This document shows, in pieces, positions 506 through 36,818 of a DNA stretch of 64,000 bases (position 1 is the first letter of the stretch; each line of letters opens with the position of its first letter). The stretch is from Escherichia coli (GTDB lineage Bacteria; Pseudomonadota; Gammaproteobacteria; Enterobacterales; Enterobacteriaceae). Location: assembly GCF_045037415.1 (NCBI RefSeq), contig NZ_CP173438.1; one strand, given 5' to 3'. The notes under the pieces were generated by a model, which saw nothing but the letters and a program-made list of their open reading frames with translations, was not told where the DNA came from and made no database searches. Made by a program: the position numbers and the translations under genes.

Positions 506-3376
506 TTATATTTTTTCCAGCGCGGTGAGTATTTTCTCCGGTGTGAAATGCCATTCGCGTAACCAGATGCCGCAGGCATCGTGAATTGCGGTAGCAATCG
601 CCGGAGCTGCGCCATTTACACCGATTTCCGAGATCGATTTCGCCCCGAATGGGCCGACTTTATCGTCGCTCGGCACCAGCACAGCGCGGAAATCACGCGG
701 AATGTCACCAATTTTCGGTGCGCCGTAACTGCGTAAATCACGCGTTAACGGGTGACCTTCGGCGTCATAAATGATCTCTTCGCTCATACTGTGGCCGATA
801 GCACGCAGGGTGGCACCGTAGATTTGTCCCAACGCTAACTCTGGATTGACCGGTGTACCGCAGTCCAGCAAGGCGTAGAATTTATCCAGGCGGATTTCAC
901 CCGTACGCGTGTTGACGGCAACTTCAGCGAAGTTTGCGCCATACGGGAAGGCGAAATCAGGTGTGATATAACTGCCAGTTCCCACCAGTGAACCAAAGCC
1001 GGTGCCGGTTTCGCCTTTATGGGCTATCTCTCCGAAACTAACTTCGCCTTTCTTGCCGCGAACGACGCCCGGCGTTGCTAGTTGAACATCTGCCACTGGC
1101 TCACCCAATATTTGCGCGCCGTGGAACAGGATTTTCTCCCGCAGATTTTCCGCTGCCAAACGCGCAGCGTTACCCGAGAAGCAAGTACCGGACGAGGCAT
1201 ATGCGCCTTTATCAAACAGTGCATGATCGGTATCACCAGAGATAACATGCACGTCCTGCGGTGGGCAGTGCAGCACTTCTGCTGCCAGTTTGGTCACCAC
1301 AGTATCCAGACCAGTACCAATATCCGCACCACCGGAATGAACGATAAAGGTGCCATCCGATTCCAGTTTGATCATGCAGTTAGCCTGATCGATATCCGGG
1401 ATACCCGATTTCTGCATGATAATGGCGACGCCGCGACCGATGTGCCAGTCACCATTTTGCGGTTTTGGTGAAGACCATTGGATCATCTCGCGACCCTGAC
1501 GCAGGATCTCTTCCAGTGCGCAGCTGGCGGCGGAAGGAACGGAGGTCGGCGCTTTACCTTCACCGATTGCACCGAGAATTTTCAGCTCTTGCCCTTCGTG
1601 TACCCGGTTACGTTCGATAATTTCCAGTTGGTCGATCTGTAACTGTTCAGCCAGTTCCGCTAATGCCATGGTGATAGCGAAGTTACCTTTCGGTGCGCCA
1701 TAACCCTGATAAGCACCATTTGGGCAAATGTTGCTGTAGTAGGTGGTGACCTGAAAATCGACGTTATCGCATGGATATAACGGCAGCGACAGCGCCGGTC
1801 CGTTACACGGTACGGTGAGTGAGTGGTTACCGTAAGGACCCGTGTTGGCGCGGAAATCCATCTTCACTGCCGTCAGGCGACCATCTTTTTTCGCGCCCAG
1901 TTTGACGGTGACTTTCGCGACGTGACGAGAGGTGTTAGCAATAAACTCTTCTTCACGGGTGTAGCGGAAAAGTACCGGACGCCCGGTCACGCAGGTTGCC
2001 CAGGCGCACACTTCTTCCAGCAGGATGTCCTGTTTGGAACCAAAACCGCCGCCAACTCGCTCTTTAATGACATGAACTTTATGCTGTTTCATGCCCACGA
2101 GGCGCGCGACCTGGCGGCGTAAGTGCCATGGTACCTGGGTGGAGGCGTGGATCACCAGACGATCGCCGTCCATACGGGTAAAGCAGATATGTGTTTCAGT
2201 CGGGCACTGCTGTGCCTGCGTTGAATTATAGGTTCGCTCAATGATCACATCGGCATCGGCAAAGCCTTTGTCCATATCGCCAATATGACCATGAATACTG
2301 GCGGCGATATTTTTGCGTGGGCGAGAACCGATCGGGAAGTTGATGATCATATGCTCGCCGCGCTGGGCTGCATGGCTGTTATCATCTTCCAGAGTATCTG
2401 GCGCACCAGCAACATACACCACCGGTTCATCGTGCACGACAGGCGCATCTTCCGCCATTGCCTCGTCAATCGACATTACCGGCTTAAGCACTTCATATTC
2501 AACGTCGATGAGCTTCAGTGCTTCGAGCGCAATGTCTTCACTTTCGGCTACTACCGCAGCAACGCGATCGCCGACGTGACGCATTTTCTTGCCGAACATT
2601 CGGCGGTCAAGCGGTGACGGTTCCGGTGCGCTCTGACCACCCGGGGTATAGTAAATATCCGGGCAATTCAGGTGAGTAATAACGTGAACGACGCCCGGTA
2701 AGGCTTCAGCTTTGCTGACATCCAGATGAGTAATCAGTGCGTGAGCGTGTGGGCTACGTAACATTTTAATGACGCAGGCGTCAGCCGTTACGCGATCTTC
2801 AACATAGCAGGGTTTCGCCTGCACCATTTTCGCGGCATCAGTTTTAGGATAATGCTTGCCAATGACTTCAAGGTCGTCACGGAAAGTCGGAGCGATATCA
2901 ATGGTGGCCTGCGGATTATTTTTACGTGCAACCGCCAGTTCAATGACCTGATAGTATTGCTGCCAGCCAGCATCGCGGCTAAACAGACCTGAGAGTGCGT
3001 CGTCGATCTCTTCGCGGGTAGGTGCGTCGATGCGATCGAGAAGATCGGTGATAATCAGAGCCGCAGCTGGATCGTTATAACCAGACTGCACCACGCCAAC
3101 ATCAACCATGGCCTGTTGAACCAGACTTAACTCATTCCATTTGCCCAGAGATTCTGCGGTACGAATATCTGCCTTCTCTAACTGTGCGGCGATAAGCAAG
3201 GACGCGTTAACGATATTACCGTTAAAGATAATTGCGTCAGAACCGGCAAACCCAAAGCCATCATCACTGTTGCGTACAGAGTGCATTCCCATGTTAAACA
3301 ACAGCTTTTGCACGTTTTCGCCTGGATTAACGGTTAGCTCCTGAGGCGCGCCATTTAAAGTAAAGTGGATGATCAT
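506..3376 (-). CDS. xdhD: Molybdopterin-binding hydroxylase subunit (xanthine dehydrogenase family) with N-terminal ferredoxin-like domain lacking Cys ligands
   Basis: 956 aa ORF; GGGFGSK motif, aldehyde oxidase/xanthine dehydrogenase-like body; 4-nt overlap with ygfM. Confidence 0.93.
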   Translation of the reverse strand: MIIHFTLNGAPQELTVNPGENVQKLLFNMGMHSVRNSDDGFGFAGSDAIIFNGNIVNASLLIAAQLEKADIRTAESLGKWNELSLVQQAMVDVGVVQSGYNDPAAALIITDLLDRIDAPTREEIDDALSGLFSRDAGWQQYYQVIELAVARKNNPQATIDIAPTFRDDLEVIGKHYPKTDAAKMVQAKPCYVEDRVTADACVIKMLRSPHAHALITHLDVSKAEALPGVVHVITHLNCPDIYYTPGGQSAPEPSPLDRRMFGKKMRHVGDRVAAVVAESEDIALEALKLIDVEYEVLKPVMSIDEAMAEDAPVVHDEPVVYVAGAPDTLEDDNSHAAQRGEHMIINFPIGSRPRKNIAASIHGHIGDMDKGFADADVIIERTYNSTQAQQCPTETHICFTRMDGDRLVIHASTQVPWHLRRQVARLVGMKQHKVHVIKERVGGGFGSKQDILLEEVCAWATCVTGRPVLFRYTREEEFIANTSRHVAKVTVKLGAKKDGRLTAVKMDFRANTGPYGNHSLTVPCNGPALSLPLYPCDNVDFQVTTYYSNICPNGAYQGYGAPKGNFAITMALAELAEQLQIDQLEIIERNRVHEGQELKILGAIGEGKAPTSVPSAASCALEEILRQGREMIQWSSPKPQNGDWHIGRGVAIIMQKSGIPDIDQANCMIKLESDGTFIVHSGGADIGTGLDTVVTKLAAEVLHCPPQDVHVISGDTDHALFDKGAYASSGTCFSGNAARLAAENLREKILFHGAQILGEPVADVQLATPGVVRGKKGEVSFGEIAHKGETGTGFGSLVGTGSYITPDFAFPYGANFAEVAVNTRTGEIRLDKFYALLDCGTPVNPELALGQIYGATLRAIGHSMSEEIIYDAEGHPLTRDLRSYGAPKIGDIPRDFRAVLVPSDDKVGPFGAKSISEIGVNGAAPAIATAIHDACGIWLREWHFTPEKILTALEKI

Positions 3377-4152
3377 ACGGCTTCCTCCCCAGCCTGTTGG
3401 CAGTCGGCATACAGGTCGGCTACCAGAACTCCCGTGATATAGCGTTTATAGGCCACGCTGCCCCGCAAATCTTCCTGCGGGAAAATGGCGTTGGCGACAG
3501 CCTGTTCCAGTGCATTGCCTTCCAGATTTTGAGTTTCAACATCATGCAGACGCAGTGCTTTACTGGCGACGCCATCCAGCGCAATTCGCATACCGTCGTG
3601 GTCTGTTATTGCAACGGCTGCCGTCACGACGGTTAAACCTGCCTGAGAACGGCTAATTTTGCGAGTCGCACAGGTGCGATACGGATCTTTAATGATAATT
3701 TCGGTTAACAGGCGATCGCATGGGCAGGCCAGGTAGTCCTCGATTGACAGCGTTTCGCCGTTGCCAAAAACCAGTTCAGCATCCAGTGCCAGCAGGACGG
3801 GAAGCAGCACTGACTCTTCTTGCCGGGCGGCAATTTCACCACCAATGGTCGACTGATTACGAACATGGCGAGAGTAGACAAAACCGAGAGCTTCCCGCAG
3901 TGCTGCAGGAATAAATCGCGCATCACGCAGTGGCTGCAAGCGAGACATTGCGCCAATTCGTAGTGCACCGTTATCCCAGTCAATCCAGTCCAGCTCCAGA
4001 TCCTGCAAGGAAATGGCAATCTTTTTATCGGTACGGGTTGGTGTAGCGTTGAGTTTGCTGCCCCCGGCGAACCAGACGGCTTCATCCTGGTAGCGGCGCT
4101 TCAGTTCCAGCGCCTGTTCGACAGAGTCGGGTCTGAAAAATTGTTCAATCAT
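3373..4152 (-). CDS. ygfM: FAD-binding subunit of molybdenum hydroxylase (CoxM/XdhB-like)
   Basis: 259 aa; FAGGSKL motif resembling AGGTDL of XdhB; ATGA overlap with xdhD. Confidence 0.9.
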   Translation of the reverse strand: MIEQFFRPDSVEQALELKRRYQDEAVWFAGGSKLNATPTRTDKKIAISLQDLELDWIDWDNGALRIGAMSRLQPLRDARFIPAALREALGFVYSRHVRNQSTIGGEIAARQEESVLLPVLLALDAELVFGNGETLSIEDYLACPCDRLLTEIIIKDPYRTCATRKISRSQAGLTVVTAAVAITDHDGMRIALDGVASKALRLHDVETQNLEGNALEQAVANAIFPQEDLRGSVAYKRYITGVLVADLYADCQQAGEEAV

Positions 4153-8704: not shown

Positions 8705-8720
8705 AGCAACAATCGCACCA
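8705..8720 (-). promoter_or_regulatory. Candidate sigma-54 (-24/-12) promoter upstream of ygfK
   Basis: Minus strand reads TGGTGCGATTGTTGCT; GG and GC dinucleotides 10 bp apart, matches TGGCAC-N5-TTGCW at 14 of 16 positions; about 70 nt upstream of ygfK start. Confidence 0.4.
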
Positions 8721-8783
8721 CTCTTGCCAGGTTTGACGGGAAATATAAAAAAATGTGAGGCGGCTCGAAACTTAATGGCTTTT

Positions 8784-8953: not shown

Positions 8954-9532
8954 CTAAATTTCAGTATACCTTTTCTTCGCTGTAATAAAGTCGTCCGGAG
9001 TATCAATATCTAAAATTATTTCTGCATTTTCTATTTCGACGGAATAATGTTCTCCCATAAGGAGTGCCTGACGCATATTGGTGACATTGGGGCGCTGGAT
9101 TGCCTGCATCAGGCATGGTTTTGACACTAAAATCGGATGGCCGGGGATGCCATTATGGAGTGGCAGTATTGCGCCATCATTTCGTAACGACCAGATTTTT
9201 CTAAAAATATCGATGGTGAGGGTTGGCATATCTCCGTGGGTGAGAAAACAATGTTCTGTTTGCACCGCGGGTACTGCGGCCTTTACTGATGTCAGTAAAC
9301 CCTGCGCATAATCTGGGTTGTGGATAATAGTGATATTGCTCTGGTTCGCATAACGTTCGTGCAGTTCATTACCACGATAGCCGGTGACTAAAATAATTCG
9401 GCTACAAAACTGCAACGCATTTTTGATACTTGTATCAAGAATTGTTCCCTGTTGCCAGGGTAACATCATTTTCCATTGCCCCATTCTTGATGATAATCCT
9501 GCGGCGGTAATTATACAGTCGATGGCTGACAT
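8954..9532 (-). CDS. mocA: Molybdenum cofactor cytidylyltransferase (MobA-like nucleotidyltransferase)
   Basis: 192 aa; N-terminal AIDCIITAAGLSSRMG nucleotidyltransferase motif. Confidence 0.88.
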   Translation of the reverse strand: MSAIDCIITAAGLSSRMGQWKMMLPWQQGTILDTSIKNALQFCSRIILVTGYRGNELHERYANQSNITIIHNPDYAQGLLTSVKAAVPAVQTEHCFLTHGDMPTLTIDIFRKIWSLRNDGAILPLHNGIPGHPILVSKPCLMQAIQRPNVTNMRQALLMGEHYSVEIENAEIILDIDTPDDFITAKKRYTEI

Positions 9533-9635
9533 AGTGATTCCATTATTTACAGGAGCTAATAACGCCTGATAATTGCGTTACTTCCTGATGGATTACGTTG
9601 AGGGTAATTTATCCCAGAGAGGTCCATAAAGACGC

Positions 9636-10406
9636 GTGAAAAGTATAATTGACCCATCGGCATTATTCATTGATTTAGGCGCGCAGAAACGTCCCACTGT
9701 GATTTCTATTGTTGGTGCTGGGGGGAAAACCAGCTTGCTTTTTTGGCTGGCAGAACTGTTCCAGGCGAGTGGCAGGCGTGTATTAATCACTACGACGACA
9801 CATATGTTTATGCCAACATCTCACTGGCCCGTGGTTTTCTGTCGTGATCCCGCCATGCTTCCTCATGCGTCTTTTATATCCCCCATTTCATTTTGTTTTC
9901 ACTGCTGGAAAGCGAACCAGGGAAAAGTGCAGGGATTTACGCCAGAAGCGATTGATGCACTGGTACAACGACCAGAGTGTGACGTAATTCTCATTGAGGC
10001 AGATGGCTCGCGTGGAATGCCGTTAAAAGCGCCTGATGAGCACGAACCTTGCATACCTAAAAGCAGTTGCTGCGTGATTGCTGTGATGGGAGGACATATT
10101 TTGGGTGCGAAAGTGAGCACAGAAAATGTCCATCGCTGGTCGCAGTTTGCTGATATTACTGGGTTAACACCTGATGCACCCTTGCAACTGAGCGATCTCG
10201 TTGCGCTGGTTCGCCACCCTCAGGGCGCGTTTAAAAACGTACCGCAAGGTTGTCGGCGAGTCTGGTTCATTAACCGTTTTTCTCAATGTGAGAATGCGAT
10301 TGCGCAAAGCGAGCTCCTTCAACCGCTGCAACAACACAACGTAGAGGCAATCTGGCTGGGCGATATACAAGAACATCCTGCAATCGCGCGCAGATTTGTG
10401 AATTAG
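9636..10406 (+). CDS. yqeC: P-loop accessory protein of selenium-dependent molybdenum hydroxylase systems
   Basis: 256 aa, GTG start; Walker A IVGAGGKTS. Confidence 0.85.
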   Translation: MKSIIDPSALFIDLGAQKRPTVISIVGAGGKTSLLFWLAELFQASGRRVLITTTTHMFMPTSHWPVVFCRDPAMLPHASFISPISFCFHCWKANQGKVQGFTPEAIDALVQRPECDVILIEADGSRGMPLKAPDEHEPCIPKSSCCVIAVMGGHILGAKVSTENVHRWSQFADITGLTPDAPLQLSDLVALVRHPQGAFKNVPQGCRRVWFINRFSQCENAIAQSELLQPLQQHNVEAIWLGDIQEHPAIARRFVN

Positions 10407-10453
10407 CGGCCCGGGTATTCCGGGTTACTGAAAGGATATCCATTGAGGTTGGT

Positions 10454-12079
10454 ATGAATATTTTCACAGAGGCTGCAAAACTCGAAGAGCAAAATTGTCC
10501 GTTTGCGATGGCGCAAATTGTTGATAGCCGAGGCTCAACCCCCCGCCATTCTGCACAAATGTTAGTGCGCGCCGATGGTTCTATCGTCGGTACAATTGGT
10601 GGCGGAATGGTTGAGCGGAAGGTGATTGAAGAGTCGCTTCAGGCATTGCAGGAACGTAAGCCGCGATTATTCCATGGACGTATGGCTCGTAACGGTGCGG
10701 ATGCTGTCGGGTCAGATTGTGGAGGTGCAATGTCAGTATTTATCAGCGTCCATGGTATGCGTCCACGTCTGGTGTTGATTGGTGCGGGGCATGTCAACCG
10801 GGCGATAGCCCAGAGTGCGGCGCTATTAGGATTTGATATCGCCGTTGCCGATATTTATCGCGAAAGCCTCAATCCTGAACTATTCCCACCATCAACCACG
10901 CTTCTCCATGCTGAGTCGTTTGGTGCGGCAGTGGAAGCACTGGATATTCGCCCTGATAATTTTGTCCTGATTGCCACGAATAATCAGGATCGTGAAGCCC
11001 TCGACAAACTCATTGAACAACCCATTGCATGGCTGGGGTTGCTGGCAAGTCGCCGCAAGGTTCAGCTTTTCCTACACCAATTGCGTGAGAAAGGCGTGGC
11101 TGAAGAACATATTGCCCGTTTACATGCGCCCGTTGGTTACAACATAGGTGCGGAAACGCCGCAGGAGATCGCCATCAGCGTGCTGGCAGAAATATTACAG
11201 GTGAAAAATAACGCGCCGGGTGGGCTGATGATGAAGCCTTCTCATCCTTCCGGACACCAGCTGGTGGTGATTCGCGGTGCGGGGGATATCGCCAGTGGTG
11301 TAGCGCTACGTCTGTATCATGCGGGTTTTAAAGTGATCATGTTGGAAGTGGAAAAACCGACAGTGATTCGTTGTACCGTGGCGTTTGCCCAGGCCGTGTT
11401 CGATGGCGAAATGACGGTCGAAGGCGTCACCGCCCGCCTGGCAACCAGCTCTGCGGAAGCGATGAAACTTACCGAACGCGGATTTATCCCTGTGATGGTA
11501 GATCCCACCTGTTCATTGCTTGATGAACTGAAACCGCTTTGCGTGGTGGACGCTATTCTGGCGAAACAGAATTTGGGAACGCGGGCAGATATGGCACCAG
11601 TAACAATCGCGCTTGGGCCGGGCTTTACTGCAGGGAAGGATTGTCATGCGGTAATTGAAACAAATCGCGGGCACTGGCTCGGTCAGGTGATTTACTCAGG
11701 TTGTGCGCAGGAGAATACCGGTGTTCCCGGCAATATTATGGGGCATACCACCCGACGAGTGATCCGCGCTCCTGCTGCAGGCATTATGCGATCCAACGTG
11801 AAATTAGGCGATCTGGTGAAAGAGGGCGATGTCATTGCCTGGATTGGTGAGCATGAAATTAAAGCACCGTTGACGGGGATGGTGCGTGGCTTGTTGAACG
11901 ACGGACTGGCCGTGGTCGGTGGTTTTAAAATTGGTGATATCGATCCTCGTGGTGAAACGGCTGATTTCACCAGCGTTTCTGATAAAGCCCGGGCGATTGG
12001 CGGCGGCGTACTTGAGGCGTTAATGATGTTGATGCATCAGGGCGTTAAAGCGACAAAAGAAGTGCTGGAAGTGGCTTAA
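10454..12079 (+). CDS. yqeB: XdhC/CoxI-family molybdenum hydroxylase maturation protein
   Basis: 541 aa; Rossmann-like LVLIGAGHV segment; follows yqeC by 47 nt. Confidence 0.88.
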   Translation: MNIFTEAAKLEEQNCPFAMAQIVDSRGSTPRHSAQMLVRADGSIVGTIGGGMVERKVIEESLQALQERKPRLFHGRMARNGADAVGSDCGGAMSVFISVHGMRPRLVLIGAGHVNRAIAQSAALLGFDIAVADIYRESLNPELFPPSTTLLHAESFGAAVEALDIRPDNFVLIATNNQDREALDKLIEQPIAWLGLLASRRKVQLFLHQLREKGVAEEHIARLHAPVGYNIGAETPQEIAISVLAEILQVKNNAPGGLMMKPSHPSGHQLVVIRGAGDIASGVALRLYHAGFKVIMLEVEKPTVIRCTVAFAQAVFDGEMTVEGVTARLATSSAEAMKLTERGFIPVMVDPTCSLLDELKPLCVVDAILAKQNLGTRADMAPVTIALGPGFTAGKDCHAVIETNRGHWLGQVIYSGCAQENTGVPGNIMGHTTRRVIRAPAAGIMRSNVKLGDLVKEGDVIAWIGEHEIKAPLTGMVRGLLNDGLAVVGGFKIGDIDPRGETADFTSVSDKARAIGGGVLEALMMLMHQGVKATKEVLEVA

Positions 12080-12087
12080 ATGAAAAT

Positions 12088-12113
12088 GGCCGGATGGTAT
12101 TACCCATCCGGCC
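12088..12113. terminator. Bidirectional hairpin terminator between convergent yqeB and yqeA
   Basis: GGCCGGATGG-tatta-CCCATCCGGCC followed by TTTAAATT. Confidence 0.6.
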
Positions 12114-20543: not shown

Positions 20544-21023
20544 TTACTTTGTTTTCTCGCAATCCAGAACTGTATTTACAATCATCTGATACCCCGTGCA
20601 GCGACAAAGATTTCCCGCCAGTCCACGACGAATTTCCGTAATGGTTAATGGCTTCTCGCGTGGTTTCGCCAGCATTGCCGTGGTAGCCATAATCAGGCCC
20701 GGCGTACAAAACCCGCATTGCACTGCACCAGATTTCGCATAAGCCAGTTGGACATGAGAAAGTTTACCGCCTTTCGCTTCACCTTCCAGCGTGCGGATCT
20801 CTTTTCCTTCAGCCCAGGCCGCAAGGAATAAGCAACTGTCTATCGCAGTGCCGTCGACCAGCACCGTACAGGCACCACATTCACCCACGCAGCACCCTTG
20901 TTTGACACTTAGCAGTCCTTGTTCGCGGAGTAATTCCGAGAGCGGCGTGCCTGGTGCGGCGTGAAGCTGAAAAGGCATCCCGTTAATGGTGCATTCGATG
21001 GTAATTGTTTCGCTGTGATTCAT
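20544..21023 (-). CDS. xdhC: [2Fe-2S] iron-sulfur subunit of xanthine dehydrogenase
   Basis: 159 aa; [11 protein letters not shown] and CGFCTPG...CRCTGY cluster motifs. Confidence 0.95.
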
Positions 21024-21897
21024 TGCAATTTCCCCCCGCCGCGGCGACGGCTTCGCTAATCACTTTTTTGGTCATCGTCTGGATGAGATGCAGACGAAAC
21101 TCTTTACTGGCCCGCCATGACGAACGCGGGGCGACATCTTGCAGGACTGATTCGCTGATGGCTTCCAGCGTTTGCAGGTTTAATGGCGCATTTTGTGCAG
21201 TCTGTTCGGCATGTTGGCAGCGAATCGGCGTTGGCGCGGCAACACCAAATGCCAGGCGTAATTCGCTGAAATTGCCGTTATCCAGTCGGCAATGTGCGGC
21301 GCAGCCAATTGTTGAAATATCCATTGCGTCGCGCATGGCATATTTAAAATGCGCGCTGCCCGCGTGTTCTTTCGGCTGTGGCGGAAAATGAAAGGCGACA
21401 AGGATTTCGTCATGCTCAAGAGACACTTTGCCCGGCCCGGTGTGAAAGCCATTAATCGGGACGAAACGAACACCGCGCGGGGAGTGGATCTCCAGTTTCG
21501 CGTCATAAATTAGCGTTGGCGTGGCAGAATCTGCGCTGGTGGCACCGTTGCAAATATTTCCGCCGTAGGTGGCGACATTACGGATCTGCGGCCCGGCGAT
21601 TGATGCAGCCGCAGCACATAACGCCGGGAGATGACGTTGAGTTACAGGATCTTCAATGAGCTGGGTAAATGTCGTTGCAGAGCCGATACGTAGCGCGCCA
21701 TCTTCCGCCAGCGTAATTCCCCGCAGCTCCGCCAGATTATGAATATCAACAATATGGCGATAACGGTCATTGTGATGGTGAAGCTGTATCAGTACGTCAG
21801 TGCCACCGGCGAGCAGTTTGGCCTGCGGGTTGTCAGTCAGCAGGTTGATGGCATCGGCAAGGGTTGCTGCGCGATGGTAAGAAGCAAAATCAAACAT
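20983..21897 (-). CDS. xdhB: FAD-binding subunit of xanthine dehydrogenase; here 304 aa with altered C-terminus (possible frameshift)
   Basis: [13 protein letters not shown] motif; ORF extends 41 nt into xdhC; expected length 292 aa by recall. Confidence 0.85.
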
Positions 21898-21907
21898 GAT
21901 GTTATCC

Positions 21908-24166
21908 TCAAATCAATCCTGCCAGATGGAATTCTTCATATAATCGTTTTGGCGTTAGCGGCAGTGTATTGATTGCAACACCGGTAGCCATCTTCACCGC
22001 GTTACGAATAGCAGCGGCTACAGGAATTATGGGTGGCTCACCCAGTGACTTATGTCCGTATGCGGATTGCGGCTCATTGATTTCGACGAACGCGCTTTCC
22101 AGTTGTGGCAGATCCGGCATGGTCGGCATTTTGTAATCCAGCAGATTGGGGTTACGGACCACGCCGCTTTTCGCATCGATGATCATCTCTTCAAATAGCG
22201 CCCAGCCAATGCCCATCCCCATTCCGCCGTGTACCTGACCTTCTGCCAGCAGCGGATTAAGAATATGGCCCGAATCATGAACGTTGAGGATGCGGTTGAT
22301 GGTTACTTTACACAGTGCAATATCGACCGTCAGATCAACAAAGGTACAGCCAAACGCCGGTGGGTTAGTGGTGGTTTTGATGGAGCTTTCGGCAGAGAGC
22401 TGCCCGCCGCGTTCAGGGTGGTAGAAAGCGTCCATCGCCAAATCTTTTAACGACATTAACGGCTCTTCCGGTCGTTCAACCAGCACGATATGGCCTTTTA
22501 TCAGGGTCAGATTCATCGCTGACTGATGTAGCATGACTGCGGCGTGAGCGATGATTTTCTCTTTTAATAACAGTGCCGCACTGCGCAGCGCAGGCGCGGC
22601 AACATAGCTCTGACGTGAGGCAAATGCGCCGGGGTCGAATGGTGTAACGTCGGTGTCTTGTGTCGAAATTACGCGGACATCGCTGACCGGAACTCCCACG
22701 GTTTCTGCCACCATTTGCGAGAACACGGTGTCGGCACCCTGGCCGATTTCCGTCGCGCCGCTTTGCACGTTGATGGTTCCATCCTGATTCATCAACAGGC
22801 GCGCGCCTGCTATTTCTACGCCGACAGGCCAGGTGTTAGAGGTGTAGCTAAAACAGGCGACGCCAACGCCACGACGTAAATTGCCTTGCTGGTTCTGGCA
22901 CTCTGCACGGCGTTTTTCCCATTCAAAGATTTTCCGGCCTTTTTCAAGACACTCCGGCAACCCTGCGCTGTAAATACGTTTTCCCGTGAGCGGATTAGCA
23001 TCTCCTTCGCGGGCGGCGTTGCGTAAACGAATTTCAACAGGATCAATACCTAACGCTGTCGCGGCATCATCAAGCATAGACTCAACGGCAAATACGACTT
23101 GTGGCGCGCCATAACCACGCATCGCACCAGCCGAGGGGAGGTTGGTATAGCAGGTCTTTGAACTGTAAGCGTAGGCACAACGAGGATAAAGGTAAGCGAC
23201 TTTATTCCCCCCAGCAGAAGCAATGGAGTGCCCGTGAGATGCATAAGCGCCGGTGTTAGACAGAACATCCAGACTATAACCTTTCAATGTTCCGTCGCGG
23301 TTCACGCCCATTTGCCCGTCAATAGTAAAAGCGTGGCGGGTACGGGTTGCGAGGAAACACTCTTCACGGCTAAGAGAAACTTTCACCGGAATGCCGCCAA
23401 GTTTGCTTGTCAGGAATGCCGCCATTGGCTCTTCCAGTACATCCTGTTTATTACCAAAACCGCCACCGATAAACGGTTTGATGACTCGTACGCATGACCA
23501 GGGAATATCCAGCGCCTGACCAACCACGCGGCGAACAATGTGCGGGATCTGGGTGCTGGAAACGATGGTAATTCGCGAGTCATCCTCCATCCATGCCAGC
23601 GATGTCACGCTTTCCATATGACAATGTTGAATAACGGGCGTCTGATAGTGCCCCTGTACCTGGTAGTCGGCGGCATCGATTGTTTGTTGGACATTACCCG
23701 TCGACATCGTGCTTTGTTTCAGTAAATTGCCACCGTTATGGATTGGTGCAGCGTCTTCTGCCAGCGCCGCTTCTGACGAGGTGATAACGGGTAATTCTTG
23801 CCACTCAATGCTGACCAATTGCACCGCTTTTTCTGCCGTGAGTTCATCGCGGGCTACGACGATGGCAACGGCGTCACCATGATGACGAACATGACGCGTT
23901 AGCAGGGCACGATCGGCAGTATCGCGCTTGTTTTCGTCAAGTGTCCAGGCATGCCCTGCCGTGGCGAATGGGATTTCTGGCACATCTTCCCAGGTAAAAA
24001 TCGCCAGGACGCCCGGCAAACTCCTGGCTTGTTCATCATTAATACTTACGGCATAACCATGTGCGATAGGGCTACGTACATATTTCGCGTAACACATGCC
24101 CGCCATAACATAATCGTCAGTATATCGTGCCCGCCCGGTGACCTTAGCAATGGCATCGACGCGCAT
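21908..24166 (-). CDS. xdhA: Molybdopterin-binding subunit of xanthine dehydrogenase
   Basis: Start chosen at MRVDAIAKVTGRARYTDDY (752 aa) rather than the 765-aa upstream start; GGGFGNK motif. Confidence 0.93.
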   Translation of the reverse strand: MRVDAIAKVTGRARYTDDYVMAGMCYAKYVRSPIAHGYAVSINDEQARSLPGVLAIFTWEDVPEIPFATAGHAWTLDENKRDTADRALLTRHVRHHGDAVAIVVARDELTAEKAVQLVSIEWQELPVITSSEAALAEDAAPIHNGGNLLKQSTMSTGNVQQTIDAADYQVQGHYQTPVIQHCHMESVTSLAWMEDDSRITIVSSTQIPHIVRRVVGQALDIPWSCVRVIKPFIGGGFGNKQDVLEEPMAAFLTSKLGGIPVKVSLSREECFLATRTRHAFTIDGQMGVNRDGTLKGYSLDVLSNTGAYASHGHSIASAGGNKVAYLYPRCAYAYSSKTCYTNLPSAGAMRGYGAPQVVFAVESMLDDAATALGIDPVEIRLRNAAREGDANPLTGKRIYSAGLPECLEKGRKIFEWEKRRAECQNQQGNLRRGVGVACFSYTSNTWPVGVEIAGARLLMNQDGTINVQSGATEIGQGADTVFSQMVAETVGVPVSDVRVISTQDTDVTPFDPGAFASRQSYVAAPALRSAALLLKEKIIAHAAVMLHQSAMNLTLIKGHIVLVERPEEPLMSLKDLAMDAFYHPERGGQLSAESSIKTTTNPPAFGCTFVDLTVDIALCKVTINRILNVHDSGHILNPLLAEGQVHGGMGMGIGWALFEEMIIDAKSGVVRNPNLLDYKMPTMPDLPQLESAFVEINEPQSAYGHKSLGEPPIIPVAAAIRNAVKMATGVAINTLPLTPKRLYEEFHLAGLI

Positions 24167-24260
24167 GCATGATTCACCCGTAGCGGTTGCTTCCCGCGCT
24201 TCCATAGAAATCCCCTCGGTTTGAACATTTGGTTCTTATGGCAAAGATTTAGTCTTAGCA

Positions 24261-24276
24261 GGCAAGAATTACGCCA
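24261..24276 (-). promoter_or_regulatory. Weak candidate sigma-54 promoter upstream of xdhA
   Basis: Minus strand TGGCGTAATTCTTGCC; GG-N10-GC spacing preserved. Confidence 0.2.
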
Positions 24277-24618
24277 GAAACGACTATATGCGTGAGGGGA
24301 GGAAGGAAGTGTGATGACGTTAAAAAAACACAGATATGATACGAAACAGGACTCTGAATAGGGACAGTGATACGTATCAATATGAGTGGCGATAAAATCA
24401 ATGTGATAAATTAGGATTATTACGCATCAAGGTGGGAAATAGGGTAAAAGTCAGGAAATTCGATACCACTACAGCAAATATTTTGCTGATGATACTTCCC
24501 TTTGCCAAATGAAATTAACCTCTTTCTCTATTACATCGTTTTTCCAGAAGCAAGAGATTGGGTATCAAGAGGCTGGCTGCTATGATATGGCGTCTTGTTT
24601 TTTAAGCGAGGAAAGATT

Positions 24619-25452: not shown

Positions 25453-25526
25453 GCGGGCGTAGTTCAATGGTAGAACGAGAGCTTCCCAAGCTCTATACGA
25501 GGGTTCGATTCCCTTCGCCCGCTCCA
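25453..25526 (+). tRNA. glyU: tRNA-Gly (anticodon CCC)
   Basis: GCGGGCGTAGTTCAATGGTAGAACGAGAGCTTCCCAAGCTCTATACGAGGGTTCGATTCCCTTCGCCCGCTCCA; cloverleaf with 7-bp acceptor stem, CCC anticodon, encoded CCA. Confidence 0.95.
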
Positions 25527-36533: not shown

Positions 36534-36615
36534 CCCAGAGGTATTGATAGGTGAAGTCAACTTCGGGTTGAGCACATGAATTACACCAGCCTGCGCAGAT
36601 GCGCAGGTTTTTTTT
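36534..36615 (+). ncRNA. omrB: OmrB small regulatory RNA (Hfq-dependent, OmpR-controlled)
   Basis: CCCAGAGGTATTGATAGGTGAAGTCAACTTCGGG...CCTGCGCAGATGCGCAGG plus T9 terminator. Confidence 0.9.
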
Positions 36616-36730: not shown

Positions 36731-36818
36731 CCCAGAGGTATTGATTGGTGAGATTATTCGGTACGCTCTTCGTACCCTGTCTCTTGCACCAACCTGCGCG
36801 GATGCGCAGGTTTTTTTT
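36731..36818 (+). ncRNA. omrA: OmrA small regulatory RNA (paralogue of OmrB)
   Basis: CCCAGAGGTATTGATTGGTGAGATTATTCGG...CCTGCGCGGATGCGCAGG plus T8 terminator; same 5' and 3' ends as OmrB. Confidence 0.9.

Follow-up and report, generated by a model that had tools for sequence, protein, structure and literature searches.

We favour, with moderate confidence, a reading in which the divergent genes mocA and yqeC-yqeB of Escherichia coli constitute a selenium-cofactor maturation unit for the neighbouring molybdopterin cytosine dinucleotide (MCD) hydroxylases, with XdhD-YgfM as the first client and XdhABC as a possible second one. This interpretation restates that of Haft & Self 2008, who built the labile-selenium hypothesis on this very E. 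coli cluster 18 years ago, and since the literature and RefSeq already contain these E. coli genes, the selenium names given to them and the hypothesis of SelD acting in trans, nothing in it is new and no new knowledge is added.

Locus, conservation and promoters

The window, i.e., the whole stretch of DNA analysed, is 64 kb of E. coli chromosome with annotated genes from xanQ through amiC. Its relevant features are as follows.

506-4152, minus strand: xdhD-ygfM (annotation), uric acid to 2,8-dioxopurine reductase
8705-8721, minus strand: sigma-54 promoter between mocA and ygfK that serves ygfK-ssnA-ygfM-xdhD, matching the published motif GTGGTGCGATTGTTGCT exactly
8954-9532, minus strand: mocA (ygfJ), 192 aa, CTP:molybdopterin cytidylyltransferase (ORF, TIGR03310 and RefSeq annotation)
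9533-9635, no strand: divergent mocA/yqeC intergenic region, 103 bp
9636-10406, plus strand: yqeC, 256 aa, GTG start, YqeC-family P-loop NTPase (TIGR03172 / PF19842)
10037-10053, plus strand: intragenic sigma-54 promoter PyqeC, identical to the published motif TGAGCACGAACCTTGCA, drives yqeB
10454-12079, plus strand: yqeB, 541 aa
10454-11194, plus strand: N-terminal half of yqeB (residues 1-247), XdhC/CoxI-type Moco-binding chaperone module, by homology
11264-12031, plus strand: C-terminal half of yqeB (residues 271-526), TIGR03309 'EF2563/YqeB' domain
12088-12113, no strand: GC-rich hairpin, terminator-like on both strands, between the convergent yqeB and arcC (yqeA), consensus match only
20544-24205, minus strand: xdhCBA (annotation and ORFs), xanthine dehydrogenase, in 5321/5426 genomes

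The ORFs of mocA, yqeC and yqeB lay exactly where the sequence-only reading had placed them, and the identities it had proposed were borne out by the agreement of the ORFs, the RefSeq gene names at matching E. coli loci (mocA, yqeC and yqeB) and NCBIfam equivalog matches. The divergent layout it had described was likewise seen, mocA being on the minus strand and yqeC-yqeB on the plus strand. RefSeq already carries selenium names for these E. coli genes. Several E. coli chromosomes match the 3126-bp mocA-yqeC-yqeB stretch at 100% identity, and the module was present in 5175/5426 complete E. coli genomes, all three ORFs being intact in about 95% of complete genomes at 95-100% identity. About 5% of complete genomes did not contain the module, and an IS3-family insertion was found within yqeB in one genome (H1). 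In the hairpin beyond yqeB, 8 of the 10 base pairs of the stem are GC, and the minus strand has a T-rich tail.

Inspection of the promoters revealed that yqeC-yqeB is no simple operon, with yqeB having a sigma-54 promoter of its own, already published, within yqeC. PyqeC overlaps yqeC codons 135-140 (E-H-E-P-C-I), and its -12 element is formed by the Pro138 CCT and Cys139 TGC codons, both of which are kept in 21/21 proteobacterial loci. Bonocora et al. 2015 showed that mutation of PyqeC abolishes sigma-54 binding and leaves YqeB undetectable, and that YqeB protein is produced in E. coli from this promoter (PMC4591121). The operon of the putative client hydroxylase, ygfK-ssnA-ygfM-xdhD, begins just downstream of mocA; alongside PyqeC, there are other sigma-54 promoters at ygfK, ygeW and xdhA. 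Information came from exact matches to the published motifs and not from the generic consensus, as a TGGCAC-N5-TTGCW scan yielded 5 matches versus 3.9 expected by chance, i.e., no excess. A single sigma-70-like match in the mocA/yqeC intergenic region (9546-9573, plus strand) agreed at 10/12 positions, and the match count there was no higher than that in shuffles.

Domains of MocA, YqeB and YqeC

MocA matched the TIGR03310 equivalog with 215.9 bits (cut-off 186.45), with residues 5-184 aligned to profile positions 1-187 of 188. The enzyme is the cytidylyltransferase making the MCD form of Moco (PMC2997495), and thus the role in MCD formation claimed for it holds.

The likeness of YqeB to XdhC/CoxI proteins, also claimed beforehand, extends over residues ~12-247 and does not include the C-terminal half, which is a separate family, TIGR03309. 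In the N-terminal half, Pfam recognized XdhC_CoxI (PF02625, residues 12-74, E = 9.8e-20) and the Rossmann domain XdhC_C (PF13478, residues 106-247, E = 1.3e-32), and sequence matches in the PDB were 2we7 and 3on5. Against the xanthine_xdhC equivalog TIGR02964, YqeB scored 111.6 bits, below the cut-off of 161.6, indicating that it is an XdhC-family relative and not an orthologue of characterised XdhC. The two Pfam domains are shared with R. capsulatus XdhC, which works with NifS4 in Moco sulfuration and insertion, and with E. coli PaoD, and the presumed common logic is to hold Moco, swap its terminal ligand while chaperone-bound, and insert it. In contrast to XdhC and PaoD, YqeB falls below the xanthine_xdhC cut-off, carries the extra 285-residue TIGR03309 domain, is paired with a P-loop NTPase, is not co-transcribed with its client, and has selenophosphate rather than a cysteine-desulfurase persulfide as the proposed donor. 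MocA-type and XdhC-type genes also adjoin each other beside purine hydroxylase genes in B. subtilis (PucA/PucB) and other xdhC-mocA pairs, as in E. coli; unlike the E. coli module, such pairs are sulfur-dependent and come without the TIGR03309 domain and YqeC.

The C-terminal half scored 417.4 bits against TIGR03309 (cut-off 220), residues 271-526 covering profile positions 1-256 of 256, and it is this half, not the XdhC-like one, that is the selenium-trait marker proper. It is laid out as a Rossmann-like subdomain, a biotinyl-like barrel (barrel-sandwich hybrid) and a C-terminal helix, and sequence and fold searches returned no solved homologue of the whole domain. Its origin as a diverged copy of the XdhC Rossmann domain was rejected at an hhalign probability of 4%. 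A true biotin/lipoyl carrier was rejected as well, since the conserved Lys is absent and Pfam Biotin_lipoyl matched only at E = 0.05. The fold of the barrel is like that of BCCP, E2 lipoyl domains and membrane-fusion-protein barrel-sandwich hybrids, but the attachment lysine of the hairpin is not conserved; in YqeB alignment A1, columns G202-A215 hold no invariant Lys, and the E. coli Lys is replaced by Tyr, Val, Leu or Arg. The barrel is therefore not a swinging-arm carrier, and a role in docking or in capping a ligand is more likely.

YqeC matched TIGR03172 over its full length with 236.2 bits (cut-off 73.05), and PF19842 was matched by all YqeC homologues. The P-loop claimed for YqeC is indeed present: residues 27-33, GAGGKTS, form a Walker A motif, and GxGGKT[ST] is conserved in 59/59 aligned loci. 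The predicted fold of YqeC is that of a SIMIBI-class P-loop NTPase, and the resemblance of the protein to the metal-centre-assembly NTPases UreG, HypB, CooC and Get3/ArsA is at the level of fold only, as identity to SIMIBI NTPases (UreG, HypB, CooC, Get3/ArsA and MeaB) and to SRP GTPases is just 10-18%. Unlike the metallocentre NTPases, the family, PF19842, is a separate one and has no family-wide CPH or CxC-type metal-binding motif. Across 60 aligned loci, no conserved Cys/His metal motif of the G3E/SIMIBI type was found near the switch regions, and neither sequence nor whole-domain fold searches matched YqeC to a solved structure. The sequence HEPC (residues 136-139) looked invariant in a first alignment, which was biased towards Proteobacteria; its invariance is confined to Proteobacteria, Cys139 being replaced by Val in 34/60 loci and His136 being variable, and hence HEPC was rejected as a universal selenium or metal ligand. 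The proteobacterial invariance of HEPC coincides with the embedded sigma-54 promoter. The aligned TIGR03309 domains likewise contain no invariant Cys able to carry perselenide, and together with the frequent Val in HEPC, this leaves no obvious selenium-binding residue.

Natural fusions link the three gene products functionally. The TIGR03309 domain is fused to an XdhC-like domain in 40/80 loci from diverse phyla, to a MocA-like domain in L073 and L076 (genome contigs) and P0118 (a protein-search match), and to YqeC in L070; NCBIfam confirmed the fusions L070 and L076, and those of L073 and P0118 were recognised solely by eye. Moreover, yqeC is directly upstream of yqeB and co-directional with it in 39/41 full-flank loci containing yqeC.

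Selenium, SelD in trans and the candidate client enzymes

The selenium-cofactor trait has YqeB and YqeC as markers in the literature (PMC2276186, PMC5029168), in keeping with the marker status for selenium-dependent molybdenum hydroxylases put forward from the sequence. The window genes are those that define the SelD/YqeB/YqeC trait (Haft & Self 2008; Zhang et al. 2008; Peng et al. 2016), with b2875 and b2876 as its name-giving members. Haft & Self found TIGR03309 restricted to selD-positive genomes, and the co-occurrence of yqeB/yqeC with selD, suggested earlier as a check, had already been mapped across >5200 genomes (PMC5029168).

The claim that the window contains neither selD nor a selenoprotein gene was supported by annotation, tblastn and Rfam alike. 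The annotated genes of the 64-kb window included none of selABCD, selU, fdhF, fdnG and fdoG; tblastn with SelD, the identity of the query having been confirmed by a separate check, gave a best E value of 0.17; and Rfam matched only OmrA, OmrB and one tRNA. No hidden selD, SECIS element or selenoprotein gene was found in the window. selD (b1764), encoded ~1 Mb away, is present outside this locus in 5425/5426 complete E. coli genomes, so that at the level of species counts (5425/5426 for selD and 5175/5426 for the module) the trait genes selD, yqeB and yqeC co-occur in E. coli. A distant selD is also the arrangement in organisms that use Sec or selenouridine as well. Among 80 other loci, selD lay within 10 kb of yqeB in only 9, adjacency being seen in orphan-selD genomes, and selD adjoining yqeB is no requirement for membership in the trait.

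At sequence level, nothing sets the window genes apart from this trait; biochemical proof comes from clostridia only. In C. difficile, uric-acid/xanthine catabolism needs selD and yqeB, and a yqeB mutant phenocopies a selD mutant; deletion of yqeC has no phenotype, and yqeC is dispensable there. In C. sporogenes, a selD mutant yielded inactive DOPDH on purification, and uric-acid degradation requires selenium and molybdenum (bioRxiv 2025.04.24.650524). Among equivalents of the client enzymes, this one alone has been demonstrated to need labile, non-selenocysteine selenium at its molybdenum centre for catalysis. The E. coli XdhD-YgfM enzyme has been shown to convert uric acid to 2,8-dioxopurine, the same reaction as that of C. 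sporogenes DOPDH (PMC12507026), and is the most likely client of the module; active E. coli enzyme was obtained with no mention of selenium supplementation. xdhD-ygfM was found in 5177/5426 E. coli genomes, tracking the count for the module, and this agreement may reflect mere physical adjacency. The literature searched held no direct evidence for labile selenium in, or selD/yqeB/yqeC dependence of, any E. coli molybdoenzyme; Haft & Self described a labile-selenium enzyme in E. coli as 'not yet observed', and the Liu et al. 2022 preprint mentions neither these genes nor selenium. Since selenium dependence is proven in clostridia and not in E. coli, the earlier statement that the locus 'implies' a trans-acting labile-selenium requirement was too strong.

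We infer both selenium use in E. coli and the division of labour among the three proteins. MocA would add CMP to Mo-molybdopterin to give MCD, which is its established function; the XdhC-like half of YqeB, judging from its homology to R. capsulatus XdhC, would hold the cofactor before insertion; the TIGR03309 half and the YqeC NTPase might then replace or install the terminal chalcogen ligand as selenium, presumably drawn from selenophosphate made by SelD in trans; and the finished cofactor would pass to the apo-enzyme.

Alternative explanations and significance

We lean slightly towards E. coli itself making a labile-selenium hydroxylase (XdhD-YgfM, perhaps XdhABC) through MocA, YqeB and then YqeC, with selenophosphate from the distant selD. 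We consider an explanation without selenium rather unlikely: YqeB would be a shared XdhC-type chaperone that holds MCD during sulfuration by a cysteine desulfurase and then loads it into XdhABC and XdhD, docking, nucleotide sensing or quality control would fall to the TIGR03309 half and YqeC, and the correlation with selD would reflect other organisms. In Neumann & Leimkuhler 2010, YqeB is given as the second homologue of XdhC in E. coli and as a chaperone that XdhD and XdhABC may share; no XdhC homologue is co-transcribed with xdhABC or with xdhD. In the view of Johnstone & Self 2024, E. coli 'likely does not make SDMHs', Peng et al. allow that YqeB or YqeC alone may serve selenium-unrelated roles (PMC5029168), and no conserved Cys or other selenium ligand is evident in the YqeB C-terminal domain, nor universally in YqeC. 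Against a sulfur-only function, however, stand the confinement of TIGR03309 to selD-positive genomes, the inactivity of the orthologous C. sporogenes pathway enzyme without SelD, the shared yqeB and selD phenotype in C. difficile, and the retention of the complete selD, yqeB and yqeC trait by E. coli.

It is highly improbable that the module matures YgfK/YgfM/XdhD as a 'selenate reductase' for oxyanion detoxification or for supplying selenide to SelD. YgfK retains the RefSeq name 'putative selenate reductase subunit', and this was the main alternative in Haft & Self, who cite Bebien et al. 2002; however, the substrates of XdhD-YgfM and YgfK have been demonstrated (uric acid to 2,8-dioxopurine, and then reduction of the latter), and Haft & Self found that selD is tracked by TIGR03309 and not by selenate-reductase homologues. 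We give equally little credence to a largely cryptic remnant, kept by linkage and contributing little naturally owing to weak, strain-dependent expression: uric-acid consumption does differ strongly among E. coli strains despite >98% protein identity, which its authors blame on regulation, and the module is missing from some genomes and interrupted in H1, but the three ORFs are intact and highly conserved in most, YqeB protein expressed from PyqeC is detected, the yqeC codons carrying this promoter have been conserved in proteobacterial loci, and E. coli cluster mutants accumulate pathway intermediates.

The mechanism by which purine hydroxylases acquire selenium at their molybdenum centre is still unsolved, and the fusion and fold data offer modest guidance for work on the roles of the YqeB C-terminal domain and YqeC. 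If E. coli makes a labile-selenium hydroxylase, the fusions of XdhC or MocA to the YqeB C-terminal domain, and of the latter to YqeC, would indicate a physical complex, and the least understood biological selenium route would become dissectable in the best genetic model. The subject bears on urate disposal by gut bacteria, hence on gout and hyperuricaemia, and on engineered uricolytic probiotics.

The module and its genomic setting

Open reading frames for mocA, yqeC and yqeB were found exactly where the sequence-only reading had placed them, with the RefSeq names and NCBIfam equivalog scores listed here.

Genes of the module, with bit scores and equivalog cut-offs
8954-9532, minus strand: mocA, molybdenum cofactor cytidylyltransferase; TIGR03310, 215.9 bits (cut-off 186.45)
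9636-10406, plus strand: yqeC, GTG start, "selenium cofactor biosynthesis protein YqeC"; TIGR03172, 236.2 bits (cut-off 73.05)
10454-12079, plus strand: yqeB, [quoted passage not shown]; TIGR03309, 417.4 bits (cut-off 220)

Since all three proteins pass these curated cut-offs, the gene identities are confirmed, far beyond chance; they are canonical, already known E. coli genes. Of 5426 complete E. coli assemblies, 5175 contain the 3126-bp module, several of them at 100% identity; it lies within a purine/uric-acid cluster in the order xanQ' - xdhD - ygfM - ssnA - ygfK - mocA / yqeC - yqeB - arcC (yqeA) - hyuA - ygeY - dpaL (ygeX) - ygeW - ygeV - xdhCBA; the other 32 kb of the window runs from araE to amiC. 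The window is part of the E. coli chromosome: its first 32 kb runs collinear with that of SK1144 (99.99% identity), and the remainder matched strain 4/1-1 at 100%.

The Rfam scan of the window returned only one tRNA (25453-25523, plus strand, at the position of the SK1144 tRNA-Gly annotation) and the OmrA/OmrB small RNA pair (36534-36615 and 36731-36818, plus strand), all unrelated to the module. At the 3' end of xdhB (21032-21038, minus strand), a homopolymer is C6 instead of the C7 of SK1144, one base fewer, which alters the last three XdhB residues (..GGKLQ* in SK1144), extends the frame by 12 amino acids into xdhC and abolishes the 4-nt overlap of xdhB with xdhC. The same allele occurs at 100% identity in other complete assemblies, which leaves a genuine variant or a recurring homopolymer error.

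Anatomy and fusions of YqeB and YqeC

YqeB consists of two parts. Its N-terminal half matches Pfam XdhC_CoxI (residues 12-74) and XdhC_C (residues 106-247), has XdhC-like PDB matches (2we7 and 3on5) and scores 111.6 bits against the xanthine_xdhC equivalog, below its cut-off of 161.6; the selenium-associated TIGR03309 domain is a separate C-terminal half (residues 271-526). The proposed resemblance of YqeB to XdhC/CoxI chaperones thus held for the N-terminal half but not for the C-terminal one. The TIGR03309 half could not be recognised as a duplicate of the N-terminal Rossmann domain (hhalign probability 4%), and no solved structure matched the whole C-domain (TM <= 0.28). Neither an invariant cysteine nor a conserved hairpin lysine was found in the TIGR03309 family alignment, so the domain is not a carrier of the persulfide type, nor a true biotinyl or lipoyl one. 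In E. coli NZ_OW968277.1 (3978311-3982689), the module match is in two pieces, interrupted by an IS3-like ISEc52 element, and the annotation splits yqeB into an "XdhC family protein" and a "YqeB" piece: a natural break, either at the junction of the two halves or inside one of them.

Relatives of the YqeB C-domain were collected from one genome per GTDB species, and the best 80 loci of 588 were examined, spanning Gammaproteobacteria, Spirochaetota, Bacillota, Chloroflexota, Bacteroidota, Desulfovibrio and one Archaeoglobi MAG. Within these best 80, an XdhC-like module was fused to the C-domain at the ORF level in 40, lay next to it in 14 and was within 10 kb in 13, and the other 13 had none; yqeC was found in 60 and a MocA homologue in 27. 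Where flanks were nearly full (n = 49), yqeC was present in 41 loci and stood directly upstream on the same strand in 39 of these.

YqeC had no PDB homologue by sequence search. Its Walker A motif (GxGGKT[ST]), ExDG, K131 and [E/D]P137-138 are kept in 59 to 60 of the 60 loci. The HEPC motif appears invariant in a Proteobacteria-biased alignment, but residue 139 is Val, not Cys, in 34 of the 60, which rules it out as a universal YqeC motif.

Two further kinds of fusion add to the known XdhC fusion. A Eubacteriales MAG encodes YqeB-C::YqeC (locus L070, 9986-11425), with TIGR03309 and TIGR03172 both above cut-offs, and Sedimentibacter hydroxybenzoicus encodes MocA-like::YqeB-C (L076, 9404-10804), checked with NCBIfam (373.5 bits for TIGR03309; 166.6 bits for the MocA-like half, below the 186.45 cut-off). 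The same MocA-like::YqeB-C arrangement was read, by eye only, in a Bacillota MAG (L073, 2626-4023) and in a Logan protein match (P0118). The three kinds of fusion link all three gene products to one another and argue for a physical assembly line.

A sigma-54 promoter within yqeC

Bonocora et al. (2015; PMC4591121) reported a sigma-54 promoter within yqeC, the mutation of which abolished sigma-54 binding, lowered yqeB mRNA and left YqeB undetectable. Published motifs were matched at three sites.

Matches to published sigma-54 motifs
8705-8721, minus strand: ygfK motif
10037-10053, plus strand: yqeC-internal motif TGAGCACGAACCTTGCA, exact match, 401 nt 5' of the yqeB ATG
24261-24277, minus strand: xdhA motif

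The yqeC-internal promoter overlaps codons E135-H136-E137-P138-C139-I140 (10035-10055 = codons 134-140), its -12 TTGCA element being formed by the Pro codon CCT, the Cys codon TGC and the A that begins the Ile codon. On the proteobacterial side (L003-L022, L057 and L067), Pro138 is CCT and Cys139 is TGC in 21/21 loci, at YqeC identities down to 30%, and the site keeps 8 to 10 of 11 sigma-54 core matches in all 21. The remaining 39 loci use all four Pro codons, mostly have Val at residue 139 and show 0 to 5 core matches. This comparison, of related sequences and without a formal test, is suggestive of promoter conservation across the sampled Proteobacteria; codons 135-140 look like a site of dual coding and promoter constraint, which may explain the locally "invariant" Cys139.

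Selenium supply and client enzymes

The annotation of the 64-kb window contains none of selD, selA, selB, selC, selU, fdhF, fdnG and fdoG, and an E. coli SelD query (itself scoring 619 bits with the SelD model) gave a best tblastn match of only E = 0.17. selD is present in 5425/5426 complete E. coli genomes and adjoins topB in K-12 (b1764). Selenium activation must therefore come in trans, which bears out the sequence-only reading on this point. Only 9 of the best 80 of 588 loci carry selD within 10 kb of the YqeB C-domain, so selD normally acts in trans, in E. coli as elsewhere. In one of the loci, from Marasmitruncus massiliensis (L079, 7127-8155, minus strand), selD adjoins yqeB and, where E. 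coli SelD has its active-site Cys17, carries an in-frame TGA (SSAG*AAKI); this SelD is presumably itself a selenoprotein. On haloarchaeal megaplasmids (matches H18 and H20), fused XdhC::YqeB genes are annotated adjoining DsrH/TusB-family sulfur-relay proteins, an adjacency hinting that chalcogen-relay proteins may feed the archaeal YqeB system.

The selenium interpretation goes back to Haft & Self (2008; PMC2276186), who defined TIGR03309, TIGR03172 and TIGR03310 as putative accessory proteins of selenium-dependent molybdenum hydroxylases (SDMHs), found 10 of 11 top phylogenetic-profile matches within this E. coli region, remarked on XdhC fusions, listed selD at b1764 and described a labile-selenium enzyme in E. 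coli as "not yet observed". The co-occurrence check proposed from the sequence was made by Peng et al. (2016), who mapped the SelD/YqeB/YqeC trait over >5200 genomes. Johnstone & Self (2024) showed that growth of Clostridioides difficile on xanthine and urate needs selD and yqeB, not yqeC; they also write that E. coli "likely does not make SDMHs". According to the 2,8-dioxopurine preprint, uric-acid degradation by C. sporogenes requires Se and Mo, and its XdhD-equivalent enzyme from a selD mutant is inactive. In the literature searched, which did not include Iwadate & Kato (2019), no paper tested dependence on selenium, selD, yqeB or yqeC in E. coli. The claim that the module implies a labile-selenium requirement of the adjacent hydroxylases thus agrees with the published trait and the clostridial dependence on SelD and YqeB, but "implies" is too strong for E. 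coli.

Among the 5426 genomes, xdhABC is present in 5321, xdhD-ygfM in 5177 and the module in 5175, a total matching that of xdhD-ygfM and not that of xdhABC. Some 250 genomes are without the module and without xdhD-ygfM, and about 145 of these apparently retain xdhABC (totals compared, not per genome). The match of the module with xdhD-ygfM fits XdhD-YgfM as the main client, although the agreement is one of counts, not a cross-table, and may reflect adjacency only. E. coli XdhD-YgfM converts uric acid to 2,8-dioxopurine, the same reaction as the C. sporogenes XdhD-equivalent (PMC12507026), and Neumann & Leimkuhler (2010) considered YqeB a possible XdhC-type chaperone common to XdhD and XdhABC.

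We consider it reasonably probable that MocA makes the cytosine dinucleotide cofactor (MCD, an established step), that the XdhC-like half of YqeB would hold it, by homology, that the TIGR03309 half and the YqeC NTPase would put on a selenium ligand from SelD selenophosphate, and that the finished cofactor would then go into XdhD-YgfM, possibly also XdhABC. Support for the selenium step comes from comparative genomics and from genetic and biochemical work in clostridia. The main rival, that the E. coli module handles sulfurated MCD only, seems to us rather doubtful. Now that the "selenate reductase" subunits have known functions in the uric-acid pathway, a role of the module in selenate reduction or detoxification is unlikely. 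Modest new pointers come from the three-way fusions, the fold classes and the dual-coding promoter.
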